A stretch of DNA of 64,000 nt from an uncultured bacterium (GCA_938004065.1 CALKWM010000013.1:75914-139913); one strand, 5' to 3'; numbered from the stretch's first letter, positions 17,783 through 43,539 are shown. The notes: a model not told the origin generated them from the letters alone. Numbers and translations: made by a program.

Positions 17783-17854
17783 TCCGGGGTAGCTCAGCGG
17801 TAGAGCAATTGACTGTTAATCAATGGGTCGTGGGTTCGAGCCCCACCCCCGGAG
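17783..17854 (+). tRNA. tRNA-Asn (anticodon GTT)
   Basis: Acceptor TCCGGGG pairs with CCCCGGA. D-arm is gctc-agcggta-gagc. Anticodon stem-loop is attga-CTGTTAA-tcaat. T-arm is gtggg-ttcgagc-cccac. Discriminator is G. Confidence 0.85.
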
Positions 17855-19435: not shown

Positions 19436-19611
19436 AGTAATAGAGATTAATGGATAAACTAATAGGACGGTTCTGGTTGACCCAACTTACCACTAATGGT
19501 TTGTCGGCAGAACCGCCCTGTTTAGGCGACAAAAATTCATTAGTGTAAAAAATTGTTGGGTCAACACTTATATTATAAAATATTTTAAGGTGCATAAAAA
19601 TCATTTTTTTG

Positions 19612-19947: not shown

Positions 19948-19952
19948 GTTTT

Positions 19953-20549: not shown

Positions 20550-20599
20550 AGTATTTAATTAATTATTAATAAATAAATAGATTTACCCCACACCCAATC

Positions 20600-23515: not shown

Positions 23516-23922
23516 ATAAATTGTAATAGAAATATAATATTTAAACTGTTTTTATGTTAGTTTAATTGTATTATCTTATCAAATAAAGACTGACTAGATT
23601 TGAATTTTGGTGATAAAAAAGATTATCATTAATGTGGTTAGTCATATTACTGAATAGTTAACCGTATAATTTAGAGCCTAAACCTTATAAAGTAATATTT
23701 TTAAGGCATGGCGAAAAAACCTTATGCATAAAGATGGTTCTTCTGACCAGCTTACTTGCATAAGGTCTATATCCGAAAGGGTATAGGGTGATCTCGAAAG
23801 AGAAAGCCGAGTTGTGTTAGAAGAGCCTTTTTTGTATTTTGAAAGAAAATTTATTTAGGATGGACAAAGTAATTATAAATTTGGTGTAATTCTTTATTTA
23901 AATAAATTATTGGGTAATTATT

Positions 23923-24672: not shown

Positions 24673-24752
24673 TAGTGATCAATTGTTTTTTATTTCGTGA
24701 ATTAAAAGTTTACAATGTAATTGTGGTTGAGTATTACTATTAATATTTATAT

Positions 24753-25574: not shown

Positions 25575-25604
25575 CTGAGATGATTTATTTATAAATATAA
25601 ATTT

Positions 25605-27669: not shown

Positions 27670-28311
27670 GTGAATTTCATTGTGTTTATCAGTAAAATAA
27701 TTTATATGCCAAAGTCTAGAGGAGAATATTCGGAAGATATTGAAAGTCAATATAGAAGACTTGAGAGAGTATATAATAAGTTAACTCAAGATTTTAACAA
27801 AGAAAGTTTATCAAAAAGTTCTCAAGAGATTCTTGATTCTGTGATTGAATTTATGACCGTTTGTTATCACTTGCGTGAATTGATAAAAAAAGACCGAAAG
27901 GTTAACAATGTTATTAAGAATAAGTTGCCATTATTTACAGATGTAGATAATAACATTGACCCTACTGATTCAAAAATTGGTTTATTAATTTGTCGTGATT
28001 TGTGTAACAAGTCTAAACATGGATCATTAGACAAAAAGTGGAGACCAAATGATGAGCATACAAAGATTAATATAACTGGTGGGTCGCTGTTTTCAGTTTC
28101 AGTAGAAGAATTAAAAGCCGCTAATAAAGAAAAAATGACTATTCATCTTAAGGAAGGTGATAGTATTTATATAGGAAATTTTACGGTTTTTTTTCGAGGA
28201 AAAAATTATAATTTACTTGGTGTGGTGGATTCATGTATGCATTTTTGGAAAAAATTTTTTGAAGAAAATAATCTTCTTATGCCGAGATATACATTGCGAA
28301 ATAACTTGTGA
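27670..28311 (+). CDS. Hypothetical protein
   Basis: 213-aa ORF. Its stop codon lies inside box 1 of repeat family B. Confidence 0.45.
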   Translation: MNFIVFISKIIYMPKSRGEYSEDIESQYRRLERVYNKLTQDFNKESLSKSSQEILDSVIEFMTVCYHLRELIKKDRKVNNVIKNKLPLFTDVDNNIDPTDSKIGLLICRDLCNKSKHGSLDKKWRPNDEHTKINITGGSLFSVSVEELKAANKEKMTIHLKEGDSIYIGNFTVFFRGKNYNLLGVVDSCMHFWKKFFEENNLLMPRYTLRNNL

Positions 28312-28412
28312 GTAAGGGAGGGGGGTAACTAAATTGTAATCAGTTAATTGGTTTTAGTTTTGAGTATTGCGCGGAGTTTTTCTTAAAAACACAGTTTATG
28401 ACTGTGTTTTTA
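28306..28412 (+). repeat. Repeat family B copy 1 (box 1 over the stop codon, box 2, then a terminator hairpin)
   Basis: Box 1 is gtgagtaagggaggggggtaactaaattgtaat. Box 2 is ttgcgcggagtttt. The terminator is aaaaacacagtttatgactgtgttttt. Confidence 0.6.
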
Positions 28413-28485
28413 TTAATTAGAATTTAATACTATTATTGTATAATAACGTTTGGAACTTAGATTGTATATTTTCTGTTAATAAAAT

Positions 28486-29244
28486 ATGGCGATGAAAATG
28501 TTTGAAAAAGCGATAAAAAATTTTATTCCTTATATGATAGCTATTCTTGTAGGGATAGTTTTTTGTTACTTGTTAATTAGTCTTGGTGGTAGTTTGTCGA
28601 GTGTATTTATTGAAATCTCTGTTTTTTTGTTAATATTGTTCATCTGTTATGTGATTTTTTTATTTGTAGATGAAAAAGAGAGTAATTATATTATGACTCT
28701 CGAAGAAGGCAGAGATATTGCAAATAATAATTTAGAAAAGGACCAAATTTTGTCTTTATTGTGTAGTTATGGGTCCCAAAGAGTTGGTCAAGATCAGGTT
28801 GTTTGGAATATGTTTGGTGCTTTTTGGGCTACAAATGCATTGTTATTGGTTAGTGTTTTTTCTGCTGATGAAGTATGGGATAAAAAATATGTTTGGTTAG
28901 TTGTGTCATTAATTGGTTTTATGGTCTCGGTGGCTTGGTTTTTAGTTCAGGATAGAATGTTGAATAGAATTGCTAGATATGAAATTTCAATTAAGTTTAT
29001 AGAAAAAACGTTAGTTTTTCCAAAACCATTGAGAACATATTCAAATTCTCCTCTAAGGTCCTTGATTGATGTAAGGGCTAGAAATGTTATGCGTTTGGTT
29101 GTTTTTTTGATCGGTGTGACTTGGTTGATAAAAGCCTTACTTGTATATGTACCTTCAATATTTATTATTGTAATTAAGTTTTTTGTTTGGATTGTTGCAG
29201 TGTTAGTATGGGTTATTGCATATTTGCTAAGTATTTTGTATTAG
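28486..29244 (+). CDS. Polytopic membrane protein, hypothetical
   Basis: Six or more hydrophobic helices. Confidence 0.5.
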   Translation: MAMKMFEKAIKNFIPYMIAILVGIVFCYLLISLGGSLSSVFIEISVFLLILFICYVIFLFVDEKESNYIMTLEEGRDIANNNLEKDQILSLLCSYGSQRVGQDQVVWNMFGAFWATNALLLVSVFSADEVWDKKYVWLVVSLIGFMVSVAWFLVQDRMLNRIARYEISIKFIEKTLVFPKPLRTYSNSPLRSLIDVRARNVMRLVVFLIGVTWLIKALLVYVPSIFIIVIKFFVWIVAVLVWVIAYLLSILY

Positions 29245-29312
29245 TAAAGTGGTTCTAACATCGTGTATTGCGCGGAGTTTTGTTTTGAAAGCACAGTTTA
29301 TGACTGTGTTTT
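29243..29312 (+). repeat. Repeat family B copy 2 (box 2 plus terminator hairpin, box 1 degenerate)
   Basis: Box 2 is gttctaacatcgtgtattgcgcggagtttt. The hairpin is the same aaagcacagtttatgactgtgttttt as in copy 1. Confidence 0.55.
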
Positions 29313-29381
29313 TGTTGTTTTTGTATTGAATTGAGATATATTAGTGATATGATTAACTTACTAGTTGGTTAATATGATTTT

Positions 29382-29969
29382 ATGAAAAATAATAATGCTA
29401 AATCAGGTATAATACAGAACACAAAAGAGTTAATAATAAAGAAGGCTTCCGAATTGTTTGCTGATAGCGGTTATCTTGGTGTTTCTATGGAGGATATTGC
29501 CAAGCAACTTAGTATTACAAAAGCCGCTTTGTATTATCATTTTACTGGAAAGGAAGAGTTGTATTCTTCGGTATTGGATGATGTATATTTATCGATGAAT
29601 AAGAAGATAGAAGCAATAAATTTAAAACAAGATTCAACGAAAATTCTGGAGGATTATATTAAGGTTTATATTGATTTTACGATGAAGGAAAAGACATTAT
29701 TGAAAATTTTGTTGCCTAGGGTGATGATGGAAAATGAGGAAATTAGAAAGAAAATTCTTAGTATTCGTAATTTATTCTTGGAAAAAGTTAAGTTTCACTT
29801 AAAAGAGATTGGTAGACAGAAATATCAAAAAGATAAAAAAATGTTGGAGGATGATTCCTTGATGATTATGTATTTTGTTGAAGGATTGCTGTTTGACAAT
29901 TTGATGATAAATAATAAGATTAATTCTTCTAAAATATCTAAGATAATCGTGGCGAAAATAGCAGATTAA
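29382..29969 (+). CDS. TetR-family transcriptional regulator
   Basis: HTH GVSMEDIAKQLSITKAALYYHF. Confidence 0.75.
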   Translation: MKNNNAKSGIIQNTKELIIKKASELFADSGYLGVSMEDIAKQLSITKAALYYHFTGKEELYSSVLDDVYLSMNKKIEAINLKQDSTKILEDYIKVYIDFTMKEKTLLKILLPRVMMENEEIRKKILSIRNLFLEKVKFHLKEIGRQKYQKDKKMLEDDSLMIMYFVEGLLFDNLMINNKINSSKISKIIVAKIAD

Positions 29970-30631
29970 TTGAAAATTATGTCTTTGAGATGATTGATTG
30001 TTTGCTTTGAATAGATAATAGAAATATGTCCCAGAACATTAATTTGTATGTTTTGGGTATTTTTTAATTGGCTAGAAATACTTGGAACTATCTCATCATA
30101 TTTTGATCTGAGGTTAATAATTTTTGGTCTGAATTTATTTTGTGATAATTTTTTCAGAAATTTGCTATTAAGAACGAGTTGATCGGCGGGAATAAATTGT
30201 TGTGGAGGTAATATATTGGCTAGAGGACTGCCATGAATAGGCGAAGCTATTGTGATAACTTTTTTTATTGTTTTTGGATATTTTTTTTCGTAGTTTAGGG
30301 CAATTATTCCACCTAGACTATGGCCGATTAGAATGATGTTTTTGAGTTGATGTTTTTTGATATATTGATTCAGTTTGTCGGTTGTTTTTTCTATGTCTTC
30401 GATATACCATCCAAGATTGGGTATATGAATATTGTGGTTTGATTTATTGAGTTTTTTGAGAAAAGGATAGTAGAGTGGGTGTTGGGTAAACCAGCCGTGA
30501 AGAAAGATGATATTTTTACGGTTAATTGGAGAGGAAATAATTGTTTCTGGCAAAAATATTTGAAATAAGCCGGAAGGAATATAGAGAAAAATGAGGATTA
30601 TTTCGCTGACAATATTGATGATGGTAAGCAT
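29966..30631 (-). CDS. Alpha/beta hydrolase (lipase/esterase-like)
   Basis: GxSxG nucleophile elbow GHSLGG. An N-terminal TM anchor is present. Confidence 0.65.
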   Translation of the reverse strand: MLTIINIVSEIILIFLYIPSGLFQIFLPETIISSPINRKNIIFLHGWFTQHPLYYPFLKKLNKSNHNIHIPNLGWYIEDIEKTTDKLNQYIKKHQLKNIILIGHSLGGIIALNYEKKYPKTIKKVITIASPIHGSPLANILPPQQFIPADQLVLNSKFLKKLSQNKFRPKIINLRSKYDEIVPSISSQLKNTQNIQINVLGHISIIYSKQTINHLKDIIFN

Positions 30632-30816
30632 ATTGTAATGATTATAAATAATGAAAAGCTCCCTAAAAAATATTCAGGGAGCGTGAATTTATTTTATTTT
30701 TATAATGAACTCGCTAATCAATGTCGTTGATTTACTGAGTCCAAGAAAATATATGTATATATTAGCGGCAAGATATCCTAGCCAATAAAGAATGTTTATA
30801 ATTGCTTTTATTTTTA

Positions 30817-31359
30817 TCATTGTTTTTTCTCCTTTCTGGGAAGTAGCAGGGGTAATCCCAATAGGGAATAACCGAAAGACATGATAATGATCAAAAATTG
30901 AATCGCTGTATTTTGCTGGAGGCTGAATAATCCAATATAGATTATTATCATGTATGGATGTGCCATATGCAGAAATATGCCGCTATAAATGAATGTGGCT
31001 ATGATTGATAGTTTATGATTTTTACTACCTCCGCAAAAATCATAAACTTTTCTGGTTATCGAGTGTGTTACTGGATTCCAGGTGGCCCAGAAGGCCTGAT
31101 AGGCACTAGGGATATCTCTTTTTTTTAGAAATCTATGAATGAGTTTTGTGTTTAGGAATTTCTTATTGCTATTTTTTTCTATTTCTAGAAAATATTCTGA
31201 TAAAAAATTGTTGTTGGTAAAGGTCTTAATAGAAAAAGAAAAGCAGTAGACATAATACGAAAAAGTTAATAGAATTATTTTCTTTAGTTCAACTAACTTC
31301 TTGTATTGTTCTAGGCATATTATTCTTTGTTTTGTAATTGACAGAAAATATGCTTGCAT
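30817..31359 (-). CDS. Hypothetical membrane protein
   Basis: Several hydrophobic helices. 180 aa. Confidence 0.4.
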   Translation of the reverse strand: MQAYFLSITKQRIICLEQYKKLVELKKIILLTFSYYVYCFSFSIKTFTNNNFLSEYFLEIEKNSNKKFLNTKLIHRFLKKRDIPSAYQAFWATWNPVTHSITRKVYDFCGGSKNHKLSIIATFIYSGIFLHMAHPYMIIIYIGLFSLQQNTAIQFLIIIMSFGYSLLGLPLLLPRKEKKQ

Positions 31360-31480
31360 TATTCATCCTCCTTTAACTGTACCCGACTTGGTACTTGATT
31401 TTTTCCATTTTTCTATTACAATTGTATTATACTAACCGAACGGTAAGTAAGTCAAGTATTATTTTTAAATTGATTGTTGT

Positions 31481-32716
31481 GTGATGAAGGAACTAGTAAA
31501 CAATTTGCGAATTTCTCTATTTTTGGCCTATAGGGGAATTGTGCGTGGTAATATTGGAACTATCTTAATGACGATAATGATGATGGTGTTGGCTTTTTTA
31601 AATTTGGTGTTTTTATCATCTATTTTTACTGGAATATCAAAGGCGATAGATAGTCAAGCTATAAATATGATGTATGGCAATATATTAATAAAGCCAGGCA
31701 AGGATGATTTTTATATTAAGGATGTGGCCAATAAGATAAGGTTGATTTCTGGTTTGCCAGGGGTAGTTGGAGCGTCTAGTCATTATGTGGATAGTTTATA
31801 TATAGAATTTGATCCTGAGCAGGATGGTTTGGATGTAAAGTCGGGAAATTGGATAACGAAAGCAGTTAATATAAATGAAGATCGACTAGTATCGAATGTA
31901 TCCGATTATATTGTGGAAGGAAGGTTTTTGGATGAAAATAGTCGTGATGAGATTGTTTTAGGCAGAGACGTTGCTGGCACTCATGGAACGGATAAATATA
32001 ATTCTTCTTTGAAAGGTGTGAAGGTGGGCGATAAAGTTTATGCCACTTTTTCCAATGGAATTCGGAGGGAGTATAGGGTAGTTGGAATATTTATGTCAAA
32101 GTCTTTGTTTGCGGATAGCATGATATATATTTCCAAAAACGAATATCAATCTGCTTATCGTGTGAACGGTGTGGCTAATGAGATTGCGGTGAAATTGGAT
32201 CAGGATAATTTGGAAGAAAAATATATAAAAATTATTAAGTCATTGGGTATTGATGATGTGGATATTAAATCATGGAGAGAAGTTAATGAGTTGGGAGGGG
32301 GTATCACCAATAGTTTTACGATGATTAAAGGTATGCTGTCAGCGATTGGTATGCTAGTGGCCGCAGTAACGATATTTATTATTATTTTTGTGAGTGTGGT
32401 GAATCGGCGGAAACAGATTGGAATCATGAAAGCGATTGGTATGCAGGAAGAAATAATTATTATTTCATATATTTGGCAGTCTTTGTTTTATGCTTTGTGT
32501 GGAGTGGTATTCGGTTTGATTATTATGTACAAAGCAATAATTCCGATATTTGTTACTTATCCGCTTGATTTTCCTGTCGGATATGTGAGTTTGGTGTTAA
32601 GTAATAATGATTTATGGACGGCTAGTATTGGTCTTATAGCATCAGCTTTTATAGGTGGGTTAATTCCGTCATTAATGGGAGTAAAAGAGTCAATTTTAAA
32701 ATTAATTTGGGGCTAA
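31481..32716 (+). CDS. ABC transporter permease, FtsX/MacB-like
   Basis: N-terminal TM helix, a roughly 230-aa extracytoplasmic domain and three C-terminal TM helices. Overlaps the downstream ATPase gene. Confidence 0.65.
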   Translation: MMKELVNNLRISLFLAYRGIVRGNIGTILMTIMMMVLAFLNLVFLSSIFTGISKAIDSQAINMMYGNILIKPGKDDFYIKDVANKIRLISGLPGVVGASSHYVDSLYIEFDPEQDGLDVKSGNWITKAVNINEDRLVSNVSDYIVEGRFLDENSRDEIVLGRDVAGTHGTDKYNSSLKGVKVGDKVYATFSNGIRREYRVVGIFMSKSLFADSMIYISKNEYQSAYRVNGVANEIAVKLDQDNLEEKYIKIIKSLGIDDVDIKSWREVNELGGGITNSFTMIKGMLSAIGMLVAAVTIFIIIFVSVVNRRKQIGIMKAIGMQEEIIIISYIWQSLFYALCGVVFGLIIMYKAIIPIFVTYPLDFPVGYVSLVLSNNDLWTASIGLIASAFIGGLIPSLMGVKESILKLIWG

Positions 32717-33387
32717 TTATGATTAATGTGATTGATTTACATAAAACATATATGGGGAAAGTGCCAACAACGGTTTTAAGGGGAATAAATATCGAAGTTG
32801 GTAAGGGTGAGTTTGTAGCAATTATGGGAAAGAGTGGTTCTGGAAAGTCGACTTTGTTACACCAACTTGGTTTATTTGATGTGCCGACTAAAGGAGAAAT
32901 TTTTTATGATGGCGAGCTGGTATCTGATTTGTCGGAGCGAGAAAAGAATAATTTTCGTTTGCATAAATTGGGTTATGTGTTTCAGGAATATGCCTTATTG
33001 CCGGAGTTGAACGTAATTGAGTCGGTGTATTTGCCATTAAAAATGCAAAGCATTGATCAAGATGATTATATATTACGGTCCAAGGAAGCTTTGGATAAAG
33101 TTGGTTTGGCGCATAGAATGAATCATATGCCTAACGAATTATCCGGTGGGGAACAACAGAGGGTGGCTATTGCCCGAGCGATTGTAGGTAGACCAAAGAT
33201 TTTGTTTGCTGATGAACCTTGTGCCAATCTTGATTCAGAATCTTCTGAAATGGTGGTTGATTTATTTCGAAAATTGAATAAGGAATTGGGACAAACTATT
33301 GTGATGGTGACGCACGAACCTGATGATACCAAAAAGGTTGATAGGGTGATTAGATTAAAGAATGGTGTAGTAACTAATGAAGAATAA
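32707..33387 (+). CDS. ABC transporter ATP-binding protein (MacB/LolD-type)
   Basis: Walker A GKSGSGKST, signature LSGGEQQRVAIARA, Walker B ILFADEP. Confidence 0.85.
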   Translation: MGLIMINVIDLHKTYMGKVPTTVLRGINIEVGKGEFVAIMGKSGSGKSTLLHQLGLFDVPTKGEIFYDGELVSDLSEREKNNFRLHKLGYVFQEYALLPELNVIESVYLPLKMQSIDQDDYILRSKEALDKVGLAHRMNHMPNELSGGEQQRVAIARAIVGRPKILFADEPCANLDSESSEMVVDLFRKLNKELGQTIVMVTHEPDDTKKVDRVIRLKNGVVTNEE

Positions 33388-33614
33388 TACTTATCATTTT
33401 TAGCCTAAGCTCGTACTTGTATGGCTAAAGTTAGTATCTGTGAGTTATATTAGGTGAGTGTGAAGTAATTGGAATGGGAAAGTAGAATGGGAGTTTCTTG
33501 GAAATGTTTGTATTCTGAAATTTGTCGACAAGTATATAATTAAAAGAAGGGGAATGATAATTTTTTATTAAAAGTTGTTAAGATGTTGAGAAAAAGAAGA
33601 AATAATATAAATAA

Positions 33615-33715
33615 CTAGTGAGTGAGGGTGTGGGGTAACTAGATTGTAATTAGTAAAGAGGTTCTAACATCGTGTATTGCGCGGAGTTTTTGAAACGAGG
33701 TCTCGAACCTGTTTT
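33615..33715 (+). repeat. Repeat family B copy 3, upstream of the first DGR target gene
   Basis: Box 1 ctagtgagtgagggtgtggggtaactagattgtaat, then gttctaacatcgtgtattgcgcggagtttt, then a hairpin. Confidence 0.6.
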
Positions 33716-33838
33716 GGTTTGGTTTTTTTGGGTGATTTTTTTAGTATCGCCTGATATTTTTATGATTTAAAAGATTGACATAATTGGTTATTTTGTGCTA
33801 TAATGTAGTGATTGTCAGGATGGATTAATTAAAAAGAA

Positions 33839-35878
33839 ATGAAAAAATACAATCTAATAAAAGGCAGATATTGGGAGCAGAAATCTTTATCTTCGAAGGA
33901 TGATAAGGGTGTAAAAGAATGGCAAAAACCGTTTCAAGAGGCAACCGAGAAAGCGGCGAGGCGAACCGAGAGAGAACAGGGTGAAAAGATCCCGAGAGGC
34001 AATGTGGAGAAGATGATTGGCAATTATCTGGATCGCTGGGAGCGGATTGAAGAACAGCGTGGTGGATTGCTGCGAAGATTTTTGGAGCGAAAATATATCA
34101 TCAAGCCGGAAAATATCACCGATGACTATATCCGTAATGTGCTGCTGGGCAACTATGCTGAACTCAAAGGATACGACCGGGAAAAACTGGCCAATGCGGA
34201 AGTGAAAGCGCAAATTGGCAAAATGTTTGAGCAGGAAACGGGCAAAAATCCCAGTAATTTTTCCATATCCAAAAAAGAAAAAATTGATGAGCAAGAGCGC
34301 ATTGTAGCCGATCAGAAAGCCAGTCTGAACGGGTGGCTGGACTATCTGGGTGGGGAGGAAGCCAAAGAAAATTATCCCCGAGAGTTCCGTTATTGGGCGA
34401 TGGCGGAGGTGGTGAAACTGGGAGCGCAAAACAAGGACAAACTGGATTATACCAAGCGCGATCAATATACGGCTGCACCTTTCCCGGAATTGAATCAACA
34501 GGCGCTGGCCAAGGTGTTTGACGAGGTGAAGAGGAAACTGGAAAAAGAACCGTCGCAAATCGGGCTAAACGAAGAAAAAAAGAGGGAGGAATATGAAAAA
34601 AGATTAAAGGGAATGAATTTCGGCAAGCTTTATGGCTGGATGATTGATTATATCAATTCATTGAAACTGCCAATGGAGCGGCTGCCGATCACCCAGGGAG
34701 AGTGGAAAAAATTTGCCAAAAATTCTGATCCCAAAGAATTGACCAGGACAATTCAGGGATTCAATACCGGCTGGTGTATCGCCGGTGAAGGGACGGCCGG
34801 CAGTTATCTGAAAAATCAGGATATCTGGATATATTATTCGGCCGATCAGGAAGGTCAAAACTCAATCCCGCGGGCGGCGGTGGTGACGGATGGCTCAAAA
34901 GTTTTGGAGGTGCGCGGTATTATCCAGACCAGGGAAGTGAAACAGCATCTGGATGACTATATCGCGCCGGTGGTGGAAAAGAAGCTAAAGGAACTGCCGG
35001 GCGGGGAAGAATGGAAGGCGGGCATGGAAGACATGAAATATCTGGCGGAAATTCATTTCAAGCATATGCAAAAAAAACCATTCGACAAGAGTGATCTGGA
35101 ATTTGTCTATGAGCTGGATCATCCGATCAGGAGTATGGGTTACGGGAAGGATCCGCGCATCGAAGAGATCAGAGAAACCAGGGATCTCGAAGCCGATATA
35201 TTGACGGTATTTGATTGTCAGTCGAATGAGATTGTTCACAGTCCAGAAGAACTTAATCAAAACACCAAAGCATATGTCGGAAAATGGAATGTTGATGTCT
35301 GGCAGAAAGTCAAAGAATATCCCAACATCAAACATCTCTTCGAATCATTTCCGGATAAGAAAATATTCATGCGAAAACTGACCACTGATCCAAATGTTGA
35401 CTCGCCTCAGTCCGCCAAAGAAGCTCTGGAGAGTAAGAATATATATGTAGCTGATTGGGCAAAAGATATTTTAGCTAAAACCAAATTCAACCCGGAAAAA
35501 CGAGAATATGAACTGGTGCGATTTACGGTGGCCGATCTTGGGTTTCCTGACGGCGCAACCACGGCGGAAATAATTGGTACGAAAAATGATAAGGATGATA
35601 ATGGCCAACCCGCTCCTTTTACTAGAGGCCGAATGACTGAGCTAGGTCTCTATCTTTGTCCGGCCGAGGTCGGGCCACATTTACGGTTGCAAAACTCCAG
35701 TCAAGATTGGATGTTGATTGCCATGGAACCCATTATCGGCTCCGGTGGCGCTCCGAGCGTGTTCCGTCTGCACTACGGCGGCGGCCGGCTGGAGCTGGAT
35801 GCGTACTACGCTGGGCCGGACGAGCACTGGCTTTCTGCCTATCTTTGGGTCTTCTCTGCCCGCAAGTTTGATACTTAG
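33839..35878 (+). CDS. DGR target protein 1 (679 aa) with a C-terminal variable repeat in a putative C-type-lectin-fold domain
   Basis: The C-terminal roughly 40 aa are encoded by the VR that matches the TR except at adenines. Paralogue of the next gene. Confidence 0.75.
   Translation: MKKYNLIKGRYWEQKSLSSKDDKGVKEWQKPFQEATEKAARRTEREQGEKIPRGNVEKMIGNYLDRWERIEEQRGGLLRRFLERKYIIKPENITDDYIRNVLLGNYAELKGYDREKLANAEVKAQIGKMFEQETGKNPSNFSISKKEKIDEQERIVADQKASLNGWLDYLGGEEAKENYPREFRYWAMAEVVKLGAQNKDKLDYTKRDQYTAAPFPELNQQALAKVFDEVKRKLEKEPSQIGLNEEKKREEYEKRLKGMNFGKLYGWMIDYINSLKLPMERLPITQGEWKKFAKNSDPKELTRTIQGFNTGWCIAGEGTAGSYLKNQDIWIYYSADQEGQNSIPRAAVVTDGSKVLEVRGIIQTREVKQHLDDYIAPVVEKKLKELPGGEEWKAGMEDMKYLAEIHFKHMQKKPFDKSDLEFVYELDHPIRSMGYGKDPRIEEIRETRDLEADILTVFDCQSNEIVHSPEELNQNTKAYVGKWNVDVWQKVKEYPNIKHLFESFPDKKIFMRKLTTDPNVDSPQSAKEALESKNIYVADWAKDILAKTKFNPEKREYELVRFTVADLGFPDGATTAEIIGTKNDKDDNGQPAPFTRGRMTELGLYLCPAEVGPHLRLQNSSQDWMLIAMEPIIGSGGAPSVFRLHYGGGRLELDAYYAGPDEHWLSAYLWVFSARKFDT
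35735..35865 (+). repeat. DGR variable repeat VR1
   Basis: 131 bp aligned to the TR at 38441-38571. There are 24 mismatches, all at TR adenine positions. The 3' segment tgggtcttctctgcccgcaa is conserved and looks like an IMH (initiation of mutagenic homing) sequence. Confidence 0.85.
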
Positions 35879-35973
35879 ATTCTTAGACTCTTTGCTTTTC
35901 TTTTGACTCTTTGTAGCTTTGACCCTTTGACCCTTTGATTTTTGAATCGCGCATTAATTAAGAAAGAAAAATT

Positions 35974-38118
35974 ATGGAAAACAAAAAACAAAACCAAATG
36001 GAAGAGAGTAGATTTTTGCTCCACAAAGAGCCGGATCTGTATAAAAGTGAACCGGTGGAAAAAGCCGTAGAAAAATACAAGCGTCTCAAGAGAGCCGGAA
36101 TAGAAGTGGAGCCGATGGATATCGGTACCAAGGCAGGACGAGTAAAAGCATATATTGATCGGCTAGAAAAAATATACAATCCTGTGCCAGTCAAGAAAGA
36201 ATCAAATTTTGATCGTCGGGAGAGAAATATTAAACTGCTAAACAAGGTTTGGGAGAAACTGGGCACAAGAGAGAAAATCCTTCAGGAAAATATTACCATT
36301 GGCTTGAATGATATTCCTCAAAGTTACTACAACAACAAGGCCCGCATCATGATCGAACAGGGATACGGGGGTGATCTGGAAAGTGGCGGAGTGGTCAAAG
36401 AAAAATATACCGACAAGAAAGGCATAGAAAGAATTAACTATATTTTTCCGGAAGAGATGCGGGAGAAAGAGCTGGAGATAATCCGCAACAATCAAACCAG
36501 AAGTCTGGACAAGTGGCTGAACTACCTTAATTCTGTTGATGCCATGTATCCGGCTTGGGGCAAGCACTGGGCTTTTACCTCAATCCTCAAACTGGGCAAA
36601 TTCCAGAAAAAAGCGGAGATTGATGAAGAGGGAAATATCTCTAATGAGAGGGCAAAATTCCAAAAGAGAAAAAAAAGTACAGTTAACTCCTATCCACTGC
36701 TTAACCCCCGAGCGTTGGCGGTGACGATCGGAACAATGACCAATTATCTGGAAGAAAAAGCCAAGCCAAAAGAACAAAGAGAGTCAATTAAGAACGAAAG
36801 CAAAAAATTAAATGATGAAGAATTTCAAAAACTAATATCAGCAGAGAATTTTGGTGATATTTACGCTCAATTTCTGCTGGAAATGCCGGAGTATTCGGTA
36901 GAAGGTCTAAAAGGGACTGAAGGAAAGTGGGTCAAGTACGTGCAGATAGATGAATATGATGGCGATGATGTAGTCGATGAGCTAGTGAAAAGTATTGAAG
37001 GATATCCACTGGAATGGTGTACGGCCGATCCGGACACGGCCAGGAGTCAACTCGAGCAGGGAGATTTCTGGGTGTATTATTCTTTTAACGAAGACGGTGA
37101 GCCGGTAATTCCCCGTCTGGCCATTCGGATGGAAGGTCAAAACAAGATTGCCGAACCACCTCGCGGTATCGCACCCGATCAAAATCTGGATCCGTATATC
37201 GGATCGGTGTTGGAGAAGAAGCTACAAGACTTTGGCAGTGAAGGAGAGCTTTACAAAAAAAGAGTGGCCGATATGGAAAGATTGACGACTATTTGGCAGA
37301 AAGCAAAAGATGAGAAAGAAATAACTAAGGAAGAGCTGATATTTCTCTACGAAATCGAGGAGAATATTCAAGGGTTTGGGTATGAGAAAGATCCCCGCAT
37401 CAAAGAGATCAGAGAGACCAGAAACCCGGAAAAAGACATGCCGGTAGTATTTGATTGCCAGCCGGAAGAAATAGCTTACAGTCCAGAAAAACTAAACCCA
37501 AACACCAAAGCCTATGTTGGTAAGTGGAATGTGGAAATTTGGCAGGAGATTAGAAAGTACCCCGGCATCAAACATCTCTTCGAATCATTTCCGGACAAAA
37601 AAATCTTCATGCAAAAACTTACCACTGAGGCAAATATCAACTCACCCGAATCGGCTAAAGAGGCTCTGAAAGACAAAAATATCTATGTTTCTGATTGGGC
37701 GAAAGACATTCTTTCCGAAACCAAATTCAGCCCGGAAAAACGAGAATATGAACTGGTGCGATTTACGGTGGCCGATCTGGGATTTCCACGTGGCGCAACC
37801 ACGGCGGAAATAATTGGTACGAAAAATGATAAGGATGATAATGGCCAACCCGCTCCTTTTACTAGAGGCCGAATGACTGAGCTAGGTCTCTATCTTTGTC
37901 CGGCCGAGGTCGGGCCACATTTACGGTTGCAAAACTCCAGTCAAGATTGGATGTTGATTGCCATGGAACCCATTATCGGCTCCGGTGGCGCTCCGAGCGT
38001 GTTCCGTCTGCACTACGGCGGCGGCCGGCTGGAGCTGGATGCGTACTACGCTGGGCCGGACGAGCACTGGCTTTCTGCCTATCTTTGGGTCTTCTCTGCC
38101 CGCAAGTTTGATACTTAG
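35974..38118 (+). CDS. DGR target protein 2 (714 aa), paralogue of target 1 with an identical C-terminal VR
   Basis: The last roughly 115 aa are nearly identical to target 1. The final roughly 390 nt, VR included, are 100% identical to those of target 1. Confidence 0.75.
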   Translation: MENKKQNQMEESRFLLHKEPDLYKSEPVEKAVEKYKRLKRAGIEVEPMDIGTKAGRVKAYIDRLEKIYNPVPVKKESNFDRRERNIKLLNKVWEKLGTREKILQENITIGLNDIPQSYYNNKARIMIEQGYGGDLESGGVVKEKYTDKKGIERINYIFPEEMREKELEIIRNNQTRSLDKWLNYLNSVDAMYPAWGKHWAFTSILKLGKFQKKAEIDEEGNISNERAKFQKRKKSTVNSYPLLNPRALAVTIGTMTNYLEEKAKPKEQRESIKNESKKLNDEEFQKLISAENFGDIYAQFLLEMPEYSVEGLKGTEGKWVKYVQIDEYDGDDVVDELVKSIEGYPLEWCTADPDTARSQLEQGDFWVYYSFNEDGEPVIPRLAIRMEGQNKIAEPPRGIAPDQNLDPYIGSVLEKKLQDFGSEGELYKKRVADMERLTTIWQKAKDEKEITKEELIFLYEIEENIQGFGYEKDPRIKEIRETRNPEKDMPVVFDCQPEEIAYSPEKLNPNTKAYVGKWNVEIWQEIRKYPGIKHLFESFPDKKIFMQKLTTEANINSPESAKEALKDKNIYVSDWAKDILSETKFSPEKREYELVRFTVADLGFPRGATTAEIIGTKNDKDDNGQPAPFTRGRMTELGLYLCPAEVGPHLRLQNSSQDWMLIAMEPIIGSGGAPSVFRLHYGGGRLELDAYYAGPDEHWLSAYLWVFSARKFDT
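37975..38105 (+). repeat. DGR variable repeat VR2 (identical to VR1)
   Basis: Sequence identical to 35735-35865. Confidence 0.85.
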
Positions 38119-38440
38119 ATTCTTAGACTCTTTGCTTTTCTTTTGACTCTTTGTAGCTTTGACCCTTTGACCCTTTGATTTTTCTTGGGGTATTCTATTA
38201 TATTAAAATCAGATTGATTGTTTCGGACGGCTACGGCTTTCCGAAAATCATTCCGACCGGTGCAAGTTAAGTATGTTATCGGCCAAGGCTGGTAACAGAG
38301 ATTTGTATTTTGTCATTAAAAAAGAACAAACTTGGTGTGGTGTGCTCCGGGTGATTTTTGATCACAAATAATATTCAGTCCAGTCTTTTTTGAGCCAATC
38401 AACCAGACGGACGGTGGCGAGGATGGCACACCATACGAAA

Positions 38441-38571
38441 ATCGACTCCGATGGCAATCCGAACGTGTTCAATCTGAACTACAACGACGACCAGCTGAAG
38501 CTGAATGCGAACAACGCTGAGCCGGACAAGCACTGGAATTCTGACAATCATTGGGTCTTCTCTGCCCGCAA
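38441..38571 (+). repeat. DGR template repeat (TR)
   Basis: Adenine-rich copy of the VR. Every TR-VR difference maps to a TR adenine. The overlapping ORF 38390-38710 is judged non-coding. Confidence 0.85.
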
Positions 38572-38594
38572 TTATGCTCTTTTCCGTGACTTGA

Positions 38595-38915
38595 TCACAA
38601 ATCGCGGTTTTTTCTGGCTGGGTTATCTAGGTTTTTATGCCAGCCGCCCAGCATCCGACCGGCTTCGATTAATTTCTCGGAAATTGCTGTATATTTGCCA
38701 TTGGGAATGATCCTGGCTTCCCAAGCTATTGAAGTCAGGAATTTAAGGACATCGAGAGTTAGGATGCATTTGGTTAGCTGATCTTTTTTCTGATCTTTGG
38801 CGGAATAGTAGGCGGCATGTGTCAATTCCAACAGATCGAGAAATTTATTTTCAATTCTTTGGCCGATAGTAAAACGGGAGGTTTTGGGAATATGGGGAAC
38901 AAGATCAATCCACAA
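38595..38915 (-). CDS. avd: DGR accessory variability determinant (Avd-like four-helix-bundle protein)
   Basis: 106 aa. Resembles the four-helix-bundle / 23S-rRNA-intervening-sequence protein family (TIGQRIENKFLDLLELTHAAYY...) to which Avd belongs. Sits between the TR and the RT. Confidence 0.7.
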   Translation of the reverse strand: MWIDLVPHIPKTSRFTIGQRIENKFLDLLELTHAAYYSAKDQKKDQLTKCILTLDVLKFLTSIAWEARIIPNGKYTAISEKLIEAGRMLGGWHKNLDNPARKNRDL

Positions 38916-38962
38916 CAGATATCCCTCTTTGATCCGAAAGAGGATCGAAGGAAGTTCTTTAC

Positions 38963-38981
38963 GAGAGAGAGAGAGAGAGAG
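38963..38981. repeat. (GA)9 dinucleotide microsatellite between the avd and RT genes
   Basis: gagagagagagagagagag read directly from the sequence. Confidence 0.8.
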
Positions 38982-39034
38982 TAAGAAGGCGGCCGCGATT
39001 TCATAGTTATGAAGATATTATTTCAATAGATAAT

Positions 39035-39988
39035 TTGTTGGAGGCCTGGCGGGAATTTTTACGGGGTAAAAGAAAAAGAAAAGATGTAGCCGAGTTTTCA
39101 TTGAACCTGGCTGACAATATTATTTTACTGCATCGCGAGTTGTCTAACCAAACTTATTGCCATGGATCATATCAATCATTCAGAATTAATGATCCCAAGC
39201 CCAGGCAAATTCACAAAGCCAGTGTTCGTGACCGACTGGTGCATCATGCGGTTTATCGCGTTCTATACTCTTATTTTGACTGCAAATTTATCTTCGACTC
39301 CTATTCCTGTCGGCAAAAGAAAGGCACACATCGAGCTATTAACCGATTTCGAGAATTTGGGCGAAAAGTCTATCGCAACCATACTAAAACAGTTTGGGTA
39401 TTGAAGTGTGATATTAAAAAATTCTTTGCCAGCATTGATCAAGTGATTTTACTGGATATATTGAGAAAATACATTTCAGATGAAAAAGTTATGTGGCTAT
39501 TGGGACAGATTATTGACAGTTATTTTGAAAAAGGAAAGAATTTAGTTGGCCTGCCACTTGGTAATTTGACCAGCCAGTTGCTGGTTAATATTTATATGAA
39601 TGAGTTTGATCAATTTGTAAAAAGAGAACTGCGAGCAAAGTATTATATCCGTTATGCGGATGATTTTGTGGTTTTATCGAAGGATAGAAAATATCTGGAA
39701 AATTTATTGCCGACGATAGAAAGAATTTTGGAAGAGAGATTGAAGCTATCTTTACATCCGGAAAAATTATTTATTAAAACGCTCGCTTCTGGGATTGATT
39801 TCCTGGGATGGGTGCATTTTCCCCATCATCGAGTGCTGCGCACAACTACCAAAAGAAGGATGATGAAGAAATTACGCAGCAAAGAGCCAGAGGCTGGCAT
39901 GCTCGAATCATATCTGGGACTACTATTACATGGCAATACGTGGAAGTTAATGAAAAAATTGGATTGTATGTTGAGAGCGAATGAATAG
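39035..39988 (+). CDS. DGR reverse transcriptase
   Basis: RT motifs include YIRYADDFVVL (YADD). The DGR-specific motif-4 variant is LPLGNLTSQLLVNIY (LGxxxSQ in place of the group II QGxxxSP). Apparent TTG start. The in-frame upstream peptide SYEDIISIDNLLEAWREF suggests an earlier non-ATG start. Confidence 0.85.
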   Translation: MLEAWREFLRGKRKRKDVAEFSLNLADNIILLHRELSNQTYCHGSYQSFRINDPKPRQIHKASVRDRLVHHAVYRVLYSYFDCKFIFDSYSCRQKKGTHRAINRFREFGRKVYRNHTKTVWVLKCDIKKFFASIDQVILLDILRKYISDEKVMWLLGQIIDSYFEKGKNLVGLPLGNLTSQLLVNIYMNEFDQFVKRELRAKYYIRYADDFVVLSKDRKYLENLLPTIERILEERLKLSLHPEKLFIKTLASGIDFLGWVHFPHHRVLRTTTKRRMMKKLRSKEPEAGMLESYLGLLLHGNTWKLMKKLDCMLRANE

Positions 39989-40119
39989 CTAGTGAGCGAG
40001 GGTGTGGGGTAATAGTTGGCTCTCTATAAAACAAGTTCTAACATCGTGTATTGCATCCGCCCAAGGCGGACAGGCTGGAGTTTAGTTTTTGAAAGCACGC
40101 TTTGTAGGCGTGTTTTTGC
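39989..40119 (+). repeat. Repeat family B copy 4, carrying a nested GC palindrome
   Basis: ctagtgagcgagggtgtggggtaatag...gttctaacatcgtgtattgc, then the inserted atccgcccaaggcggacaggct, then ggagttt, then the terminator gcacgctttgtaggcgtgtttttgc. Confidence 0.6.
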
Positions 40120-40231
40120 TATATGGTATAAAGATTTATGGGAATATCAATGATTATTGCAAGAAATTCTGTTTGCATGTCGTAATAGGTAGTGCATACC
40201 TGTGGGGACTCTTTAGATTATTTCTATTTCA

Positions 40232-41005
40232 ATGCTAAAAGATATCAGAAAATTTAATCGGTTTGAGTTGAAATATGTGATTACACTTGATCAGTTGGAG
40301 CGATTGCGAAATATCGTGACCGATTTTGCTGTGCCCGATCAGCGGGGGAATAAAGAGGGTAAATACGTTATTTCCAGTTTGTATTACGACGGTGATGATT
40401 ATCGGTTTTATTGGGAAAAGGTGGAGGGTTTGAAATTCCGGCGCAAATTGCGTATCAGGCATTATGAGACGGATAAAAAATTGGGACCTAATTCAAAGGT
40501 TTTTGTGGAGATCAAGCAGAGAGTGGATCGAGTTACTCAAAAACGACGAGTGGCGATGAAGTACAAAGAAGCGTTGCAGTTGTGTGACGGGCGGGAGATT
40601 CCGGGTGGTTTTGAGAATGATCCGGTGGTGGAGGAGATATATTCGATGCTGCAAATTTATGACCTCAAGCCCAAAGCCATTACCAGTTATTGGCGACAGG
40701 CGTTTGTCGGGCATGATTATGATATGGGTTTAAGGGTGACGTTTGATACTGATTTACGTTACCGGGTGGATGATCTGGATTTGGCGTCGAAGAAGATTGG
40801 TGATTTTTTGATTTCACCGAAGTTGGCGGTGTTGGAGATAAAGGTGAATGAGCGCGTGCCGTATTGGATAACAGAAGTGGTGGCCAGTCAGAATGTTCGA
40901 CTGGTGAGAATCAGTAAATATTGCCAGGTGATTGAGATGGCGGGGTTGGTTCCTAAAAATCAATATTATATAAATTATTTGAATTCATTAGTTAGGAGTA
41001 ATTAG
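40232..41005 (+). CDS. VTC/CYTH-like (polyphosphate-polymerase-domain) protein
   Basis: The N-terminal FELKYVI (ExK) start of a triphosphate-tunnel fold. This is the family that usually pairs with DUF4956 and CotH genes. Confidence 0.5.
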   Translation: MLKDIRKFNRFELKYVITLDQLERLRNIVTDFAVPDQRGNKEGKYVISSLYYDGDDYRFYWEKVEGLKFRRKLRIRHYETDKKLGPNSKVFVEIKQRVDRVTQKRRVAMKYKEALQLCDGREIPGGFENDPVVEEIYSMLQIYDLKPKAITSYWRQAFVGHDYDMGLRVTFDTDLRYRVDDLDLASKKIGDFLISPKLAVLEIKVNERVPYWITEVVASQNVRLVRISKYCQVIEMAGLVPKNQYYINYLNSLVRSN

Positions 41006-41007
41006 TT

Positions 41008-41700
41008 ATGGACCAGTTAATGGAAATCTTAAATTTTCAGGATTTGACCGGGACTTTTTCGGTGACGGATGTTGTTTTGTCACTGGTGTTAAGTTTTGTA
41101 CTCACATCTTTTATCGGTTGGCTGTATCAGAAGACGCATAAGGGAACATCATATACTCAGAGTTATGTGCATACGCTGGTGCTGATGGGAATGGTAGTGA
41201 GTATTATTATGTTGATCGTGGGATCGAATATTGCCCGGGCGTTTTCGCTGGTGGGAGCGCTGTCGATAATTCGTTTTCGTAATGCGGTTAAAGAAACTCG
41301 GGATGTCGGTTTTATCTTTTTTGCGATGGCGATTGGGATGGCAACAGGAACCAAGTTTTATCTGCTGGCGGTGATTGCGACAGTGATTATCAGTCTGGTG
41401 ATATTGCTAATGAATCGATTTGACTGGTTTTCGCGAAGGATGAGTGGCCAGATATTAAAAATTCAGTTAAATAATGATGAAGATTATGAAACTATTTTTA
41501 ATGATGTGTTTGTAAAATATACAGATGTGGCTGAGTTAATCAGTGCTGATTCGGTGCGGTCAGGATTGTTGACGGAATTGGTGTATAACGCGACGTTGAA
41601 AAAGGGAGTAAAAAAACAGGAATTTGTTTCGGAGATTAGGAAGCTAAATGGAAATTTGAAGGTGACATTATTGACCGGATATAATTCAATGGATTTGTAA
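41008..41700 (+). CDS. DUF4956-like membrane protein
   Basis: Four TM helices followed by a soluble C-terminal domain. Conserved neighbour of VTC and CotH genes. Confidence 0.5.
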   Translation: MDQLMEILNFQDLTGTFSVTDVVLSLVLSFVLTSFIGWLYQKTHKGTSYTQSYVHTLVLMGMVVSIIMLIVGSNIARAFSLVGALSIIRFRNAVKETRDVGFIFFAMAIGMATGTKFYLLAVIATVIISLVILLMNRFDWFSRRMSGQILKIQLNNDEDYETIFNDVFVKYTDVAELISADSVRSGLLTELVYNATLKKGVKKQEFVSEIRKLNGNLKVTLLTGYNSMDL

Positions 41701-41701
41701 T

Positions 41702-43333
41702 ATGAATTTGAACTGGCGACGAAATTATTGGATAGTTCTAGCTCTGCTGAGTGTGGTGGGGCTATTGTTGCTAATGGGTGACTATCGGATAATTTCGTAT
41801 AACTGGCTGGTGGAGAAGGAAGATGAGGAGTTGGTTGGCAATAATTATGATAATACTGTGTACTTATTTGATGACTCGCAGGTGCATGATATTGAGATCG
41901 CGATCAGTGATGAGAATTATGATAAGATGATAGCGACATATCAGGAAACGGGCGAGAAGGATTATTTTCCGGCTGATGTGGTAATAGATGGGGTGACGAT
42001 AGAGAATGTCGGGGTGAGGTTAAAAGGGAATATGACCTTGAGAACTGTATTGGGAGAAGGTGGTGGCGAGGCGGAATTTGGTCCCGGTGGAGGAATGGGT
42101 CAGGATGGTCCGTCCGGTGGTTTTGGTGGTAGAGGAGAAAGGCCCGATTTACCTGATGGCATGGAAATGCCGGAAGGTATGAATTTTCCCGGGGGTGGTG
42201 ATGGAGAAGGTGATATGTCTTTACCGGTGGGAATGGGTATGCAGATGGAAATGACGGAAGAGTTACAGGATCGTTTGCCGATGTTGGTGAGGTTTGATGA
42301 ATATGTGGCCGGGCAAACCTATCAGGGTTTGAGCGAGATAGCACTGCGAATTGCGACGGGAGATGATGCTTTTAGTTTGTTGAATGAGCAGGTGGCTTAT
42401 GGAGCGCATAAGGTGGTTGGACAGATAGTGCCGGAGACTGCTTATGTAGCAGTACAAGTTGATGGTCAGGAGCAGTATGTATATGTGGTATCAGAAGTGA
42501 TAAATGAGGAATATGTTGAAAAACATTTTGGGGGTGATGGAGTTTTGTATAAAGCGGACAATTTTGTAGGATTTGATTATCTGGGAGATGATCCGACTTT
42601 GTATGTCGAAAAATATGAGCAGAAGACTATGATAAATGACTATGATCTGAAATATTTGATTGAGTTTTTGAAGTTTGTGGATCAGTCGAGTGATGAGGAG
42701 TTTGAGTCACAGTTGTCTGGCTGGCTGGATATAGATTTGTTGATGCGGATGTTGGCACTGGATGAGTTACTGACCAACAATGATTCATTCGGTGGAATGG
42801 GCAGTAATTATTATTTGTATTATGATCTTGATGAGGAAAAATTTTATTTTTTGAGTTGGGATATGAATCTGGCAATGGGTAATATGGGGGGTGGTGGACA
42901 AGGAATGCCGGGACAGATGGGATTTGATCGGGGTGAATTTGGTGACTTAGGAGAGGGGATGGGTGAAGAAGGTTTATTGCCGGAAGGATTTGAGTCGCCA
43001 GAAGGTTTTAACGGAGCCGAAGGATTTGGACCGGGTGGAAGGCAAGGATCAAACAAACTGAAAGAAAGATTTATGGCCAATGAAAAATATAAGCAGATGT
43101 ATGACGAAGTTTATGAAAGTCTGAAGAAAATGTTATTTGATGGGGGTTATCTGGAAAAACGAGCTGATTATTTGTCAGGAGTGTTTTTGGATTGGAATGA
43201 ATACACTGGATTAATGAATGAAGAAGATTATATCAATGGACTGGAGACGCTGAAGGATTTTATTGCTAATGGTCCCAAAAATGAGAGTTTTGGAGATGGA
43301 GTTGAGGCGGTAGATGAATTTCCAGCAAACTAG
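41702..43333 (+). CDS. CotH-family (atypical kinase-like) protein with Gly/Met/Glu-rich low-complexity inserts
   Basis: CotH core ...GVRLKGN..., ...NYYLYYDLDEEKFYFLSWDMNLAMG.... Two G/M/E/P-rich inserts. N-terminal TM/signal segment. Confidence 0.65.
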   Translation: MNLNWRRNYWIVLALLSVVGLLLLMGDYRIISYNWLVEKEDEELVGNNYDNTVYLFDDSQVHDIEIAISDENYDKMIATYQETGEKDYFPADVVIDGVTIENVGVRLKGNMTLRTVLGEGGGEAEFGPGGGMGQDGPSGGFGGRGERPDLPDGMEMPEGMNFPGGGDGEGDMSLPVGMGMQMEMTEELQDRLPMLVRFDEYVAGQTYQGLSEIALRIATGDDAFSLLNEQVAYGAHKVVGQIVPETAYVAVQVDGQEQYVYVVSEVINEEYVEKHFGGDGVLYKADNFVGFDYLGDDPTLYVEKYEQKTMINDYDLKYLIEFLKFVDQSSDEEFESQLSGWLDIDLLMRMLALDELLTNNDSFGGMGSNYYLYYDLDEEKFYFLSWDMNLAMGNMGGGGQGMPGQMGFDRGEFGDLGEGMGEEGLLPEGFESPEGFNGAEGFGPGGRQGSNKLKERFMANEKYKQMYDEVYESLKKMLFDGGYLEKRADYLSGVFLDWNEYTGLMNEEDYINGLETLKDFIANGPKNESFGDGVEAVDEFPAN

Positions 43334-43405
43334 TGAGGAGGGGTGTGGGGTAACTAGCATGTAACCACTAAAGCGGTTCGAACTAAAGTGTCCACCGAAT
43401 CGGCG
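43329..43405 (+). repeat. Repeat family B copy 5 (box 1 supplies the TAG stop of the CotH gene)
   Basis: aaactagtgaggaggggtgtggggtaactagcatgtaacc, then gcggttcgaac...ccaccgaatcggcgg. Confidence 0.55.
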
Positions 43406-43539
43406 GATGCATGGATTATTTAGATGAGAGGAACCGAGCTTTACTCTCGTAGTTCGCTACTCTCATTGTTCCCCTTTGTTAAGGAATAAAAAAAGACCAA
43501 ATGAATGGTTATTTATGAAAAATCAATGTATCTAGTTGT

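Follow-up and report, generated by a model that had tools for sequence, protein, structure and literature searches.

What places one and the same composite repeat at the ends of successive genes in a bacterial island, and leaves the neighbouring chromosome free of it? The question is raised by a stretch of 64,000 nucleotides from an uncultured bacterium (GCA_938004065.1 CALKWM010000013.1:75914-139913, hereafter the window), in which a repeat of roughly 100 bp, termed family B, had been noticed behind gene stops and likened to integron cassette boundaries (attC sites) or to a miniature inverted-repeat transposable element (MITE) targeting gene 3' ends. Our analyses suggested that family B probably represents the attR-type junctions of integrative elements that encode a large serine recombinase (LSR) and a replication-type protein (Rep) and that insert in the 3' ends of tRNA genes of Patescibacteria-like hosts. 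Comparison loci from other genomes, metagenomes and viral contigs carry L-numbers (L004, L012, L037, L068 and so on).

Composition and Distribution of the Repeat

The composite consists of box 1, a linker, box 2 and then GGAG with a terminator. Box 1 (consensus ATATAGTGAGTnnGGGTGTGGGGTAA) is sited at or shortly past gene stops, and box 2 comprises GGTTCKAAC and 15 further nucleotides. The box 1 query GTGAGNGAGGGTGTGGGGTAA, with up to three mismatches, gave five matches against 0.01 expected (a minus-strand copy included), and the box 2 query GTATTGCGCGGAGTTTT gave three against 0.20 expected; the five plus-strand copies reported earlier are all present at their places, far above chance, and correspond to families D4, D5, D7 and D8 of the repeat search. 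Both motifs are confined to 17.9-43.4 kb of the window within the 81.8 kb of the source contig, which confirms the restriction to the accessory region. The approximately 56 kb of flanking chromosome holds no copy, and none of about 55 core genes is followed by a member of the family, so this is not a genome-wide terminator family.

Copy 1 (28303-28412, plus strand, as are copies 2 to 5) has box 1 at 28303-28330, the box 2 24-mer at 28350-28373, GAG at 28374-28376 and a terminator hairpin at 28381-28412, and the TGA stop (28309-28311) of gene 27670-28311 lies inside its box 1. Copy 2 (29240-29314) is without box 1; the TAG stop (29242-29244) of an 8xMP-like gene falls in the linker ATTAGTAAAG, followed by box 2 (29251-29274), GAG (29275-29277) and a terminator (29283-29314). 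Copy 3 (33613-33735) has box 1 at 33613-33640, box 2 at 33660-33683 and GAG at 33684-33686; the ABC ATPase gene before it stops at 33387, and the box ends just an 11-codon open reading frame (ORF) with an ATG start within a 24-codon open frame. Copy 4 (39988-40118) comes directly after the reverse transcriptase (RT) gene of a diversity-generating retroelement (DGR), with box 1 at 39988-40013, GAG at 40078-40080 and a terminator at 40087-40118; its box 2, which starts at 40034, is split by a hairpin insertion of about 21-23 nt. Copy 5 (43328-43408) has box 1 at 43328-43355, with the TAG stop (43331-43333) of the CotH gene inside it, and GGTTCGAAC at 43375-43383. There is also a sixth copy on the minus strand (20581-20608), which consists of box 1 alone and overlaps the TGA stop of a 402-aa gene (20600-21808), so the claim that every copy is on the plus strand does not hold.

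Other parts of the original prediction fared unevenly. Four of the five plus-strand copies start at or beside a real gene stop, the exception being copy 3 (33615). Box 1 supplies the stop codon of the 27670 gene and of the CotH gene, but not, as had been supposed, that of the RT gene, whose TAG (39986-39988) lies just 5' of the ctaGTGAG of the original prediction and overlaps the extended repeat only. Stops in all three frames occur within box 1 of copies 1 (28306) and 3, whereas in copies 4 (39989) and 5 (43329) the third frame closes later or never. The proposed ctagt/actag inverted repeat reduces to the self-complementary CTAG at both sides, and fold z-scores of the copies were weak (+0.64 to -2.15), with no significant fold. 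A strong hairpin and U run, as in an intrinsic terminator, do follow in copies 1, 2 (29243) and 4; this terminator part leaves box 1 and box 2 unaccounted for.

Junctions With the tRNA 3' End

The bases that follow box 2 change with the local target. L076, a tRNA-Asn locus of another genome that occupies the same dnaG-rpoD site, has both element ends visible; at its junction, the stop of an NYN gene is followed by box 1, 63 nt, AGTTCTGAT and 15 nt (a 24-mer) and then AAGCCAACCT, ten bases identical to the local tRNA-Asn 3' end and first flank bases. At the tRNA-Ser of L037, where both element ends can likewise be seen, a degenerate box 1, GGTTCTAAT with 15 nt, and CCG|CCA are found about 13 kb off on the same strand, and the tRNA-Ser itself ends in CCG. 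L004 (Peregrinibacteria) has four elements after tRNA-Asn on the strand of the tRNA, and the approximately 95 nt after each are 90-93% identical to its own tRNA-Asn flank from GAGCC onward. The order in L053 is rpoD, an intron-split tRNA-Asn, flank, a radical-SAM-like gene, element with flank, a 292-aa gene, element with flank, a 215-aa gene and a third flank-terminator copy; the flank terminator recurs twice there: behind the first element 21 nt are identical, and at a more distant place 41 nt match at 85%. The flank of copy 3 in the window resembles, as read by eye, that of the native tRNA-Asn in L012, a syntenic relative. Overall, the post-box 2 bases are GAG, CCG or AAG according to the local tRNA end, which gives the layout of an attR site, namely element arm, core and displaced target end, and a direct repeat of the target (the core) with target-side flank is found at the junction in the window (CGGAG), L004, L053, L037 and L076. 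The flank copies in L004, L053 and the window indicate that the hairpin is most simply a displaced or mimicked tRNA-Asn terminator and not a dedicated mRNA terminator.

Spacing points in the same direction. The distance from GGTTC to the shared trinucleotide is 24 nt in several sequence families of elements (10 of 16 hits of a regular expression) and 19 nt in each tRNA, as counted from the tRNA sequences, so that the 9-mer falls at half-site positions 16-24 in the element and 11-19 in the host. Exactly such a shift, of 5 bp, is reported for the zinc-ribbon-domain motif of serine integrases when attP and attB are compared (Rutherford et al., PMC3783163). An RNA hairpin does not explain the constant spacing, since pairing in box 2 was no better than in shuffles (71.4% of cells paired vs. 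72.6% in column shuffles, with no covariation); RNAalifold predicted no structure for box 2, and an Rfam scan of the element matched no family at the gathering cut-off or at E≤10. We also considered a tRNA cloverleaf for the 75-nt element and rejected it: ARAGORN reported none, the acceptor and D arms cannot pair, and similarity to the tRNA body is near random. Homology to the tRNA is clear only at the 3' end and flank.

By our own tally, the junction copies are oriented like the tRNA in about 17 of 17 cases (window, L012, L004, L030, L068, L037, and L076), and in L004 the flanking genes lie on the strand opposite to both elements and tRNA. The box 1 after Rep is inverted relative to the junction copies wherever both are visible. 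Because orientation follows the tRNA, we regard the repeat as a DNA-level site tied to the tRNA rather than a 3' untranslated region (3'-UTR) element. For L053, the strand of the tRNA was taken from the sequence, the tRNA being intron-split: this tRNA (4668-5290, minus strand) is divided in its anticodon loop by a group I intron (RF00028, 4706-4986) and was missed by ARAGORN, and an ORF in the intron region resembles, judged by eye, an HNH-type endonuclease.

The Element at tRNA-Asn and Its Relatives

The target in the window is tRNA-Asn(GTT) at 17783-17854 on the plus strand, which would form the left junction (attL); its last bases, CCCCCGGAG, and the downstream flank are assigned to the mobile segment. 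The LSR gene (17816-19435, minus strand) overlaps the 3' half of the tRNA with its last 13 codons, and its product contains the domains Resolvase PF00239, Recombinase PF07508 and Zn_ribbon_recom PF13408. LSR homologs occur in L037, L038, L068, L071, L076 and L078; the gene overlaps tRNA-Asn in the window, L068 and L076 and tRNA-His in L071/72, and in L037 homologs of both LSR and Rep adjoin tRNA-Ser. The 402-aa protein (20600-21808, minus strand) matches PF27228 (MTBMA_p00010_2nd), a domain whose name comes from a protein of an archaeal plasmid, and its homologs number more than 1,600, many of them fused to Toprim domains; judged by these relationships, it is a replication-type, plasmid-type protein (Rep) and a backbone gene of the element family.

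A LOOT RNA (RF03000) lies at 23675-23808 on the plus strand between the backbone operon and the cargo genes. LOOT was also found in L067 (7169-7293), L068 (5321-5444), L071 (8724-8846), L076 (8044-8172) and L078 (6735-6857) as well as in further box 1 loci (L009, 2363-2480; L059, 1482-1595), so that it is a constant backbone component of related elements, in which it points toward the cargo. Its predicted pairing with box 1 was nothing special (-17.2 kcal/mol vs. -16.2 ± 2.9 for shuffled box 1). The backbone order is a gene of 280-450 aa, DUF5659, a small gene, Rep, box 1, zero to three small genes, LSR and tRNA, and box 1-bearing loci have island genes in common with the window.

The C-terminus of the LSR, which ends in IILRGWGSNPRPID before the stop, is encoded by the reverse strand of the tRNA (17816-17860), and excision would swap it for a tail encoded by the other end of the element. 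In addition, every element examined has a second GGTTC(G/T)AAC box 45-62 nt downstream of the target tRNA (17915-17926 in the window; also in the flanks of L071, L037, L068, L004, and L030), which in LSR-bearing elements lies within the coding region of the LSR C-terminus (MLEP in the window).

Modules and Variable Cargo

The proximal module of the window comprises LSR, Rep, LOOT and six cargo genes closed by copy 1. Four distal modules follow, each closed by a junction: the 8xMP-like gene, the genes from TetR to the ABC transporter, the DGR, and the genes from VTC to CotH. No LSR remnant was found after copy 5 or elsewhere in the window. All assemblies of the window's contig that were checked for strain variants have an identical arrangement; the units between copies do vary, as would be expected of cassette-like behavior, between the window and a related genome, L068. 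This locus is the same dnaG-rpoD-tRNA-Asn site in a relative whose host genes have 70-75% nucleotide identity to the window. Its cargo includes genes for SNase and DUF4352, the 273-aa gene that it shares with the window, and a 171-aa gene behind which box 1 and a terminator lie. The 8xMP unit comes next and is followed by a 382-aa gene with an element. Both genomes have the 8xMP unit in common, together with the elements that flank it, and the neighbors differ.

Between the tRNA 3' end and box 1 (approximately 17845-20580 in the window; 8321-11075 in L068), the two are 95-100% identical, and the GGGGTAA end of box 1 is the exact point at which identity falls to about 60%, the level of the Rep module. 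Compared with the 70-75% of dnaG and rpoD, this points to a recent horizontal transfer or an exchange of modules.

The shared 273-aa gene (phrog_17239; 24733-25584 in the window, 2648-3499 in L068) is 94% identical, and its homology stops within 10-20 nt of the ORF on both sides with box 1 at neither edge, so gene-sized mosaicism also occurs without the repeat. The DGR module is complete (33839-39988), with target genes at 33839-35878 and 35974-38118, mutually identical variable repeats of 136 nt (35735-35870 and 37975-38110), a template repeat at 38441-38576 and the RT gene at 39035-39988; 25 of 26 mismatches between template and variable repeats fall at template adenines.

Proposed Mechanism and Points Against It

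Under the attR-type interpretation, box 1 would be a 26-nt motif that the element family puts at gene ends: one stands behind Rep, and for four of the five right-end copies one lies at, or close to, the stop codon of the last real gene upstream. Box 2, T-loop-like GGTTCKAAC with 15 nt, may be read as the element-side (P-type) half-site of the recombinase, followed by a crossover region, CGGAG, and by a copy or mimic of the tRNA-Asn flank with its terminator. We infer both the LSR as the acting enzyme and the exact position of the crossover. The four distal modules could be remains of earlier insertions, displaced outward, or cassettes holding cargo alone that the same recombinase moves in trans; in L053 and L004 the single-gene units are tidy, which favors cassettes over decayed elements, with the caution that LSRs recombine only attP with attB.

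Several observations weigh against this interpretation. The att model leaves box 1 unexplained: it lies 21-90 nt from box 2, outside the minimal LSR site, and also stands alone, after Rep and in many metagenome contexts. Copy 5 has a degenerate spacing of 31 nt and then GAT instead of GAG. No clear inverted copy of the GGTTCGAAC motif was seen at the expected positions of the right half-sites (the flank), as dyad symmetry around a central dinucleotide would require; the right arms contain only weak inverted matches, read by eye, that are 1-3 nt off those positions. No recombinase remnants were found in the four distal modules, and the arrays in L053, L004 and L012 have no LSR in the available sequence. 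Moreover, to our knowledge canonical LSRs do not recombine attP with attL, so serial stacking requires that the flank keeps acting as a putative B' arm.

A more specific version, which we put forward tentatively, is an LSR-run, integron-like cassette system anchored at the tRNA. The tRNA-Asn 3' end and flank would be the fixed acceptor site, a module of flank, gene, box 1 and box 2 would be the free cassette, and the site formed by box 2 and flank would recombine with the tRNA site; since both sites share the right arm, the reaction would regenerate both substrates and hence be reversible. Box 1 might then serve as a cassette-end signal read by Rep or another element protein.

Box 1 Beyond the Window

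Exact scans with GTGAGNNNGGGTGTGGGGTAA gave hits at 13 loci in genomes, 5 in viruses and 46 in metagenomes. For the genome collection we estimate about 17 hits by chance, and some high-GC hits are clearly due to chance; most hits have extra upstream bases in common. Conservation is limited to about 26 nt, with nothing conserved beyond, and a profile search found two to five co-oriented copies in many loci. Same-strand gene ends lie a few bases from box 1 in the window, L022, L035, L036, L038, L049 (twice), L040 (a methyltransferase gene), L067 and L068, and a variant follows a cdd-like gene of L012. Box 1 or a variant ends the Rep gene in the window, L038, L067, L068, L076, L037 and L009, with a remnant in L071. 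In a second context, comprising about 12 loci, opposite-strand genes start 78-127 nt upstream of box 1. Clusters of three to five co-oriented copies within 600 nt occur in L040, L008, L010, L042 and L061. A literature search for the motif on both strands returned chance hits only, and no description was found in the searchable literature. Candidate roles are a site for Rep or an accessory protein, a recombination linker, and a translation or transcription stop signal.

Three proposals for box 1 were set aside or weakened. A direct repeat of CCCCACCCCC in tRNA-Asn was weakened because box 1 is the same in tRNA-Ser elements; an LSR half-site centered on the TATA end is contradicted by the mosaic breakpoint at the GGGGTAA end; and a forward-strand -10 element (TATAGT) was rejected, as the copies in the window, L067 and L068 read CTAGT, CTTGT or TTAGT.

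Non-coding arrays and inverted pairs were observed as well. In L040 (1699-2450), five consecutive non-coding units follow the stop of the DNA methyltransferase gene, each headed by a box 1 variant and containing a hairpin and then a repeat of the 3' arm of the hairpin (e.g., CCCGTAATAACGGGAAATTAACGGG), and an RT gene lies about 1 kb downstream; unit arrays of this type also occur in L008, L010, L042, L061 and L066. In L009 (5705-5775), L037 (10627-10700) and L078 (11243-11269), the 3' end of the Rep gene contains box 1 in reverse complement. In L009 and L037 this reverse complement is in frame, encoding ..[IV]YPT..LT.., and a forward box 1 lies 12-22 nt on, which results in a long inverted repeat (read by eye in L037). 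Inverted box 1 pairs are also present in five IMG/VR contigs (L016, L017, L020, L051, and L057).

Alternative Explanations

The copies might instead be 3'-UTR or terminator modules acting as RNA, with box 1 halting ribosomes in all frames, box 2 and the hairpin terminating or stabilizing the mRNA, and operons sharing a 3' end. That would agree with window copies that follow co-oriented genes, with the strong hairpin and U-run terminators in three copies, and with stops overlapping box 1 in the window, L022, L038, L049, L067 and L068. However, in L004 the elements run with the tRNA and against every flanking gene, box 1 is antisense to its flanking genes at L038 5057-5083, the hairpin and flank copy the tRNA's own flank, and the absence after core genes, the lack of an Rfam match, the box 2 hairpin without covariation and the weak fold z-scores all speak against RNA modules, which we consider unlikely. 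The cassette-boundary reading of the original prediction describes the arrangement correctly, in that the gene-element-gene array has a single orientation and its copies delimit modules downstream of tRNA-Asn; ORF stops inside the element, the single-gene units of L053 and L004, and inverted box 1 pairs in some contigs (L016, L037, and L009) also fit integron attC boundaries or a MITE targeting gene 3' ends. The mechanisms themselves did not stand: the copy alignments contain no RYYYAAC...GTTRRRY inverted cores and no attC-like hairpin (z-scores as above), single copies are asymmetric, without terminal inverted repeats or target-site duplications, and the 3' part copies the tRNA end. No integron integrase was found, in line with the original statement: about 36 window ORFs scanned, which take in part of the small ORFs, gave no Phage_integrase or tyrosine integrase match. 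An attC or MITE origin is therefore very improbable.

Two further explanations concern box 1 by itself. It may be a DNA site for Rep (origin- or iteron-like) or for another element protein, with box 2 and the flank still forming an att junction; we hold this to be possible, though doubtful. Its recurrence at the Rep gene end in many loci, its clusters of three to five copies, its self-contained length of about 26 nt and the abrupt mosaic breakpoint at its end would suit such a site, but the copies in clusters are unevenly spaced (64-206 nt), which classical iterons are not, copies at cargo-module ends are unexpected for an origin, and binding is a prediction from sequence. Box 1 on the opposite strand (TTACCCCACACCCnnACTCACTATA) could also be taken for a phage-type or sigma-70 promoter, given that it ends in ACTCACTATA, a sequence also present in the T7 promoter, and that opposite-strand genes start nearby in the second context described above. 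Those genes carry their own TATAAT near the ATG, which rules out the reverse complement of box 1 as their promoter; in the window such a promoter would fire antisense into gene ends, the window lineage has CTAGT or CTTGT instead of TATA, and a conserved -35 element is lacking altogether. A promoter is thus hardly credible.

Comparison With Known Systems

The attL and attR sites of LSR systems (A118/LI, phiC31, and Bxb1) resemble family B in that the LSR gene adjoins the site and a short core is shared, and in the motif of about 9 bp whose distance from the crossover is 5 bp greater in the element than in the host, 16-24 vs. 11-19 (PMC3783163). Family B differs in its target, a tRNA 3' end, in its motif, the universal T-loop sequence, in its stacked junctions, in a right arm that is alike in "attB" and "attP", and in the extra 26-nt box 21-90 nt off. 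We know of no LSR system that needs such a box.

Tycheposons integrate in tRNA genes, and their repeated integration pushes older elements outward and leaves partial tRNA repeats in the island (bioRxiv 10.1101/2020.12.28.424599). Like them, the island described here combines a site-specific integrase, replication genes and cargo, and the features of tRNA-island accretion are found in it, with integrase, replication gene and cargo by the tRNA and att remnants in tRNA orientation. It is unlike tycheposons in its Patescibacteria host, in its integrase (an LSR, the minority type among tycheposons), in its backbone of PF27228 Rep and LOOT RNA, in its many single-gene modules, and in repeats that form a fixed composite of box 1, linker and box 2 where tycheposons have plain partial tRNAs. 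SCCmec is likewise moved by a serine recombinase (CcrAB, at the rlmH 3' end), contains recombinase-less modules stacked between repeats, and has direct repeats that include the last codons and stop of the target gene; it differs in its protein-gene target and in repeats of about 15-18 bp, and we know of no box 1-like motif at its cargo-gene ends. Integron attC sites share with family B the single-orientation cassette arrays, the ORF stops often inside the site and the ORF-less units, but family B has no IntI, no R''/R' cores and no conserved hairpin, and its sequence, not its structure, is conserved.

Patescibacteria (the Candidate Phyla Radiation) have tiny genomes and few described mobile elements. 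Our comparison outlines a widespread element family there, with LSR, PF27228 Rep and the orphan LOOT RNA, whose attachment sites are predicted from sequence alone. If its small modules move in trans, they would constitute a second, serine-recombinase route to integron-like gene capture, and the LSRs would be a source of enzymes with the universal T-loop region as host-side site. Box 1 in turn is a motif of 26 nt conserved across many distinct metagenome contexts.

Host and Genomic Setting

The window encodes DnaG, RpoD and MetRS and is bacterial chromosome. Exact protein matches assign it to NCBI contig DAIUKQ010000005.1 (assembly GCA_036848155.1). The nearest relatives of its sequences are metagenome-assembled genomes of Patescibacteria, and the host is most likely a bacterium of this type. 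A genetic code with TGA as sense codon, raised by the TGA stops, was dropped, as housekeeping ORFs are full length under table 11. Megablast of window positions 27-47 kb gave no match in a phage database, and a PHROGs scan of ten island genes matched two, to unnamed or weakly matching families, so that a clear phage signature is absent.

The G+C content is low across the window, and the GC skew is positive and unusually strong throughout (0.3-0.47), with dips at 18-22 kb and 34-40 kb; the G+C content of the DGR region is higher, at 0.44-0.46. In addition, tandem-like short repeats of the CTCAAAA type (family D3) occupy positions 11539-12842.

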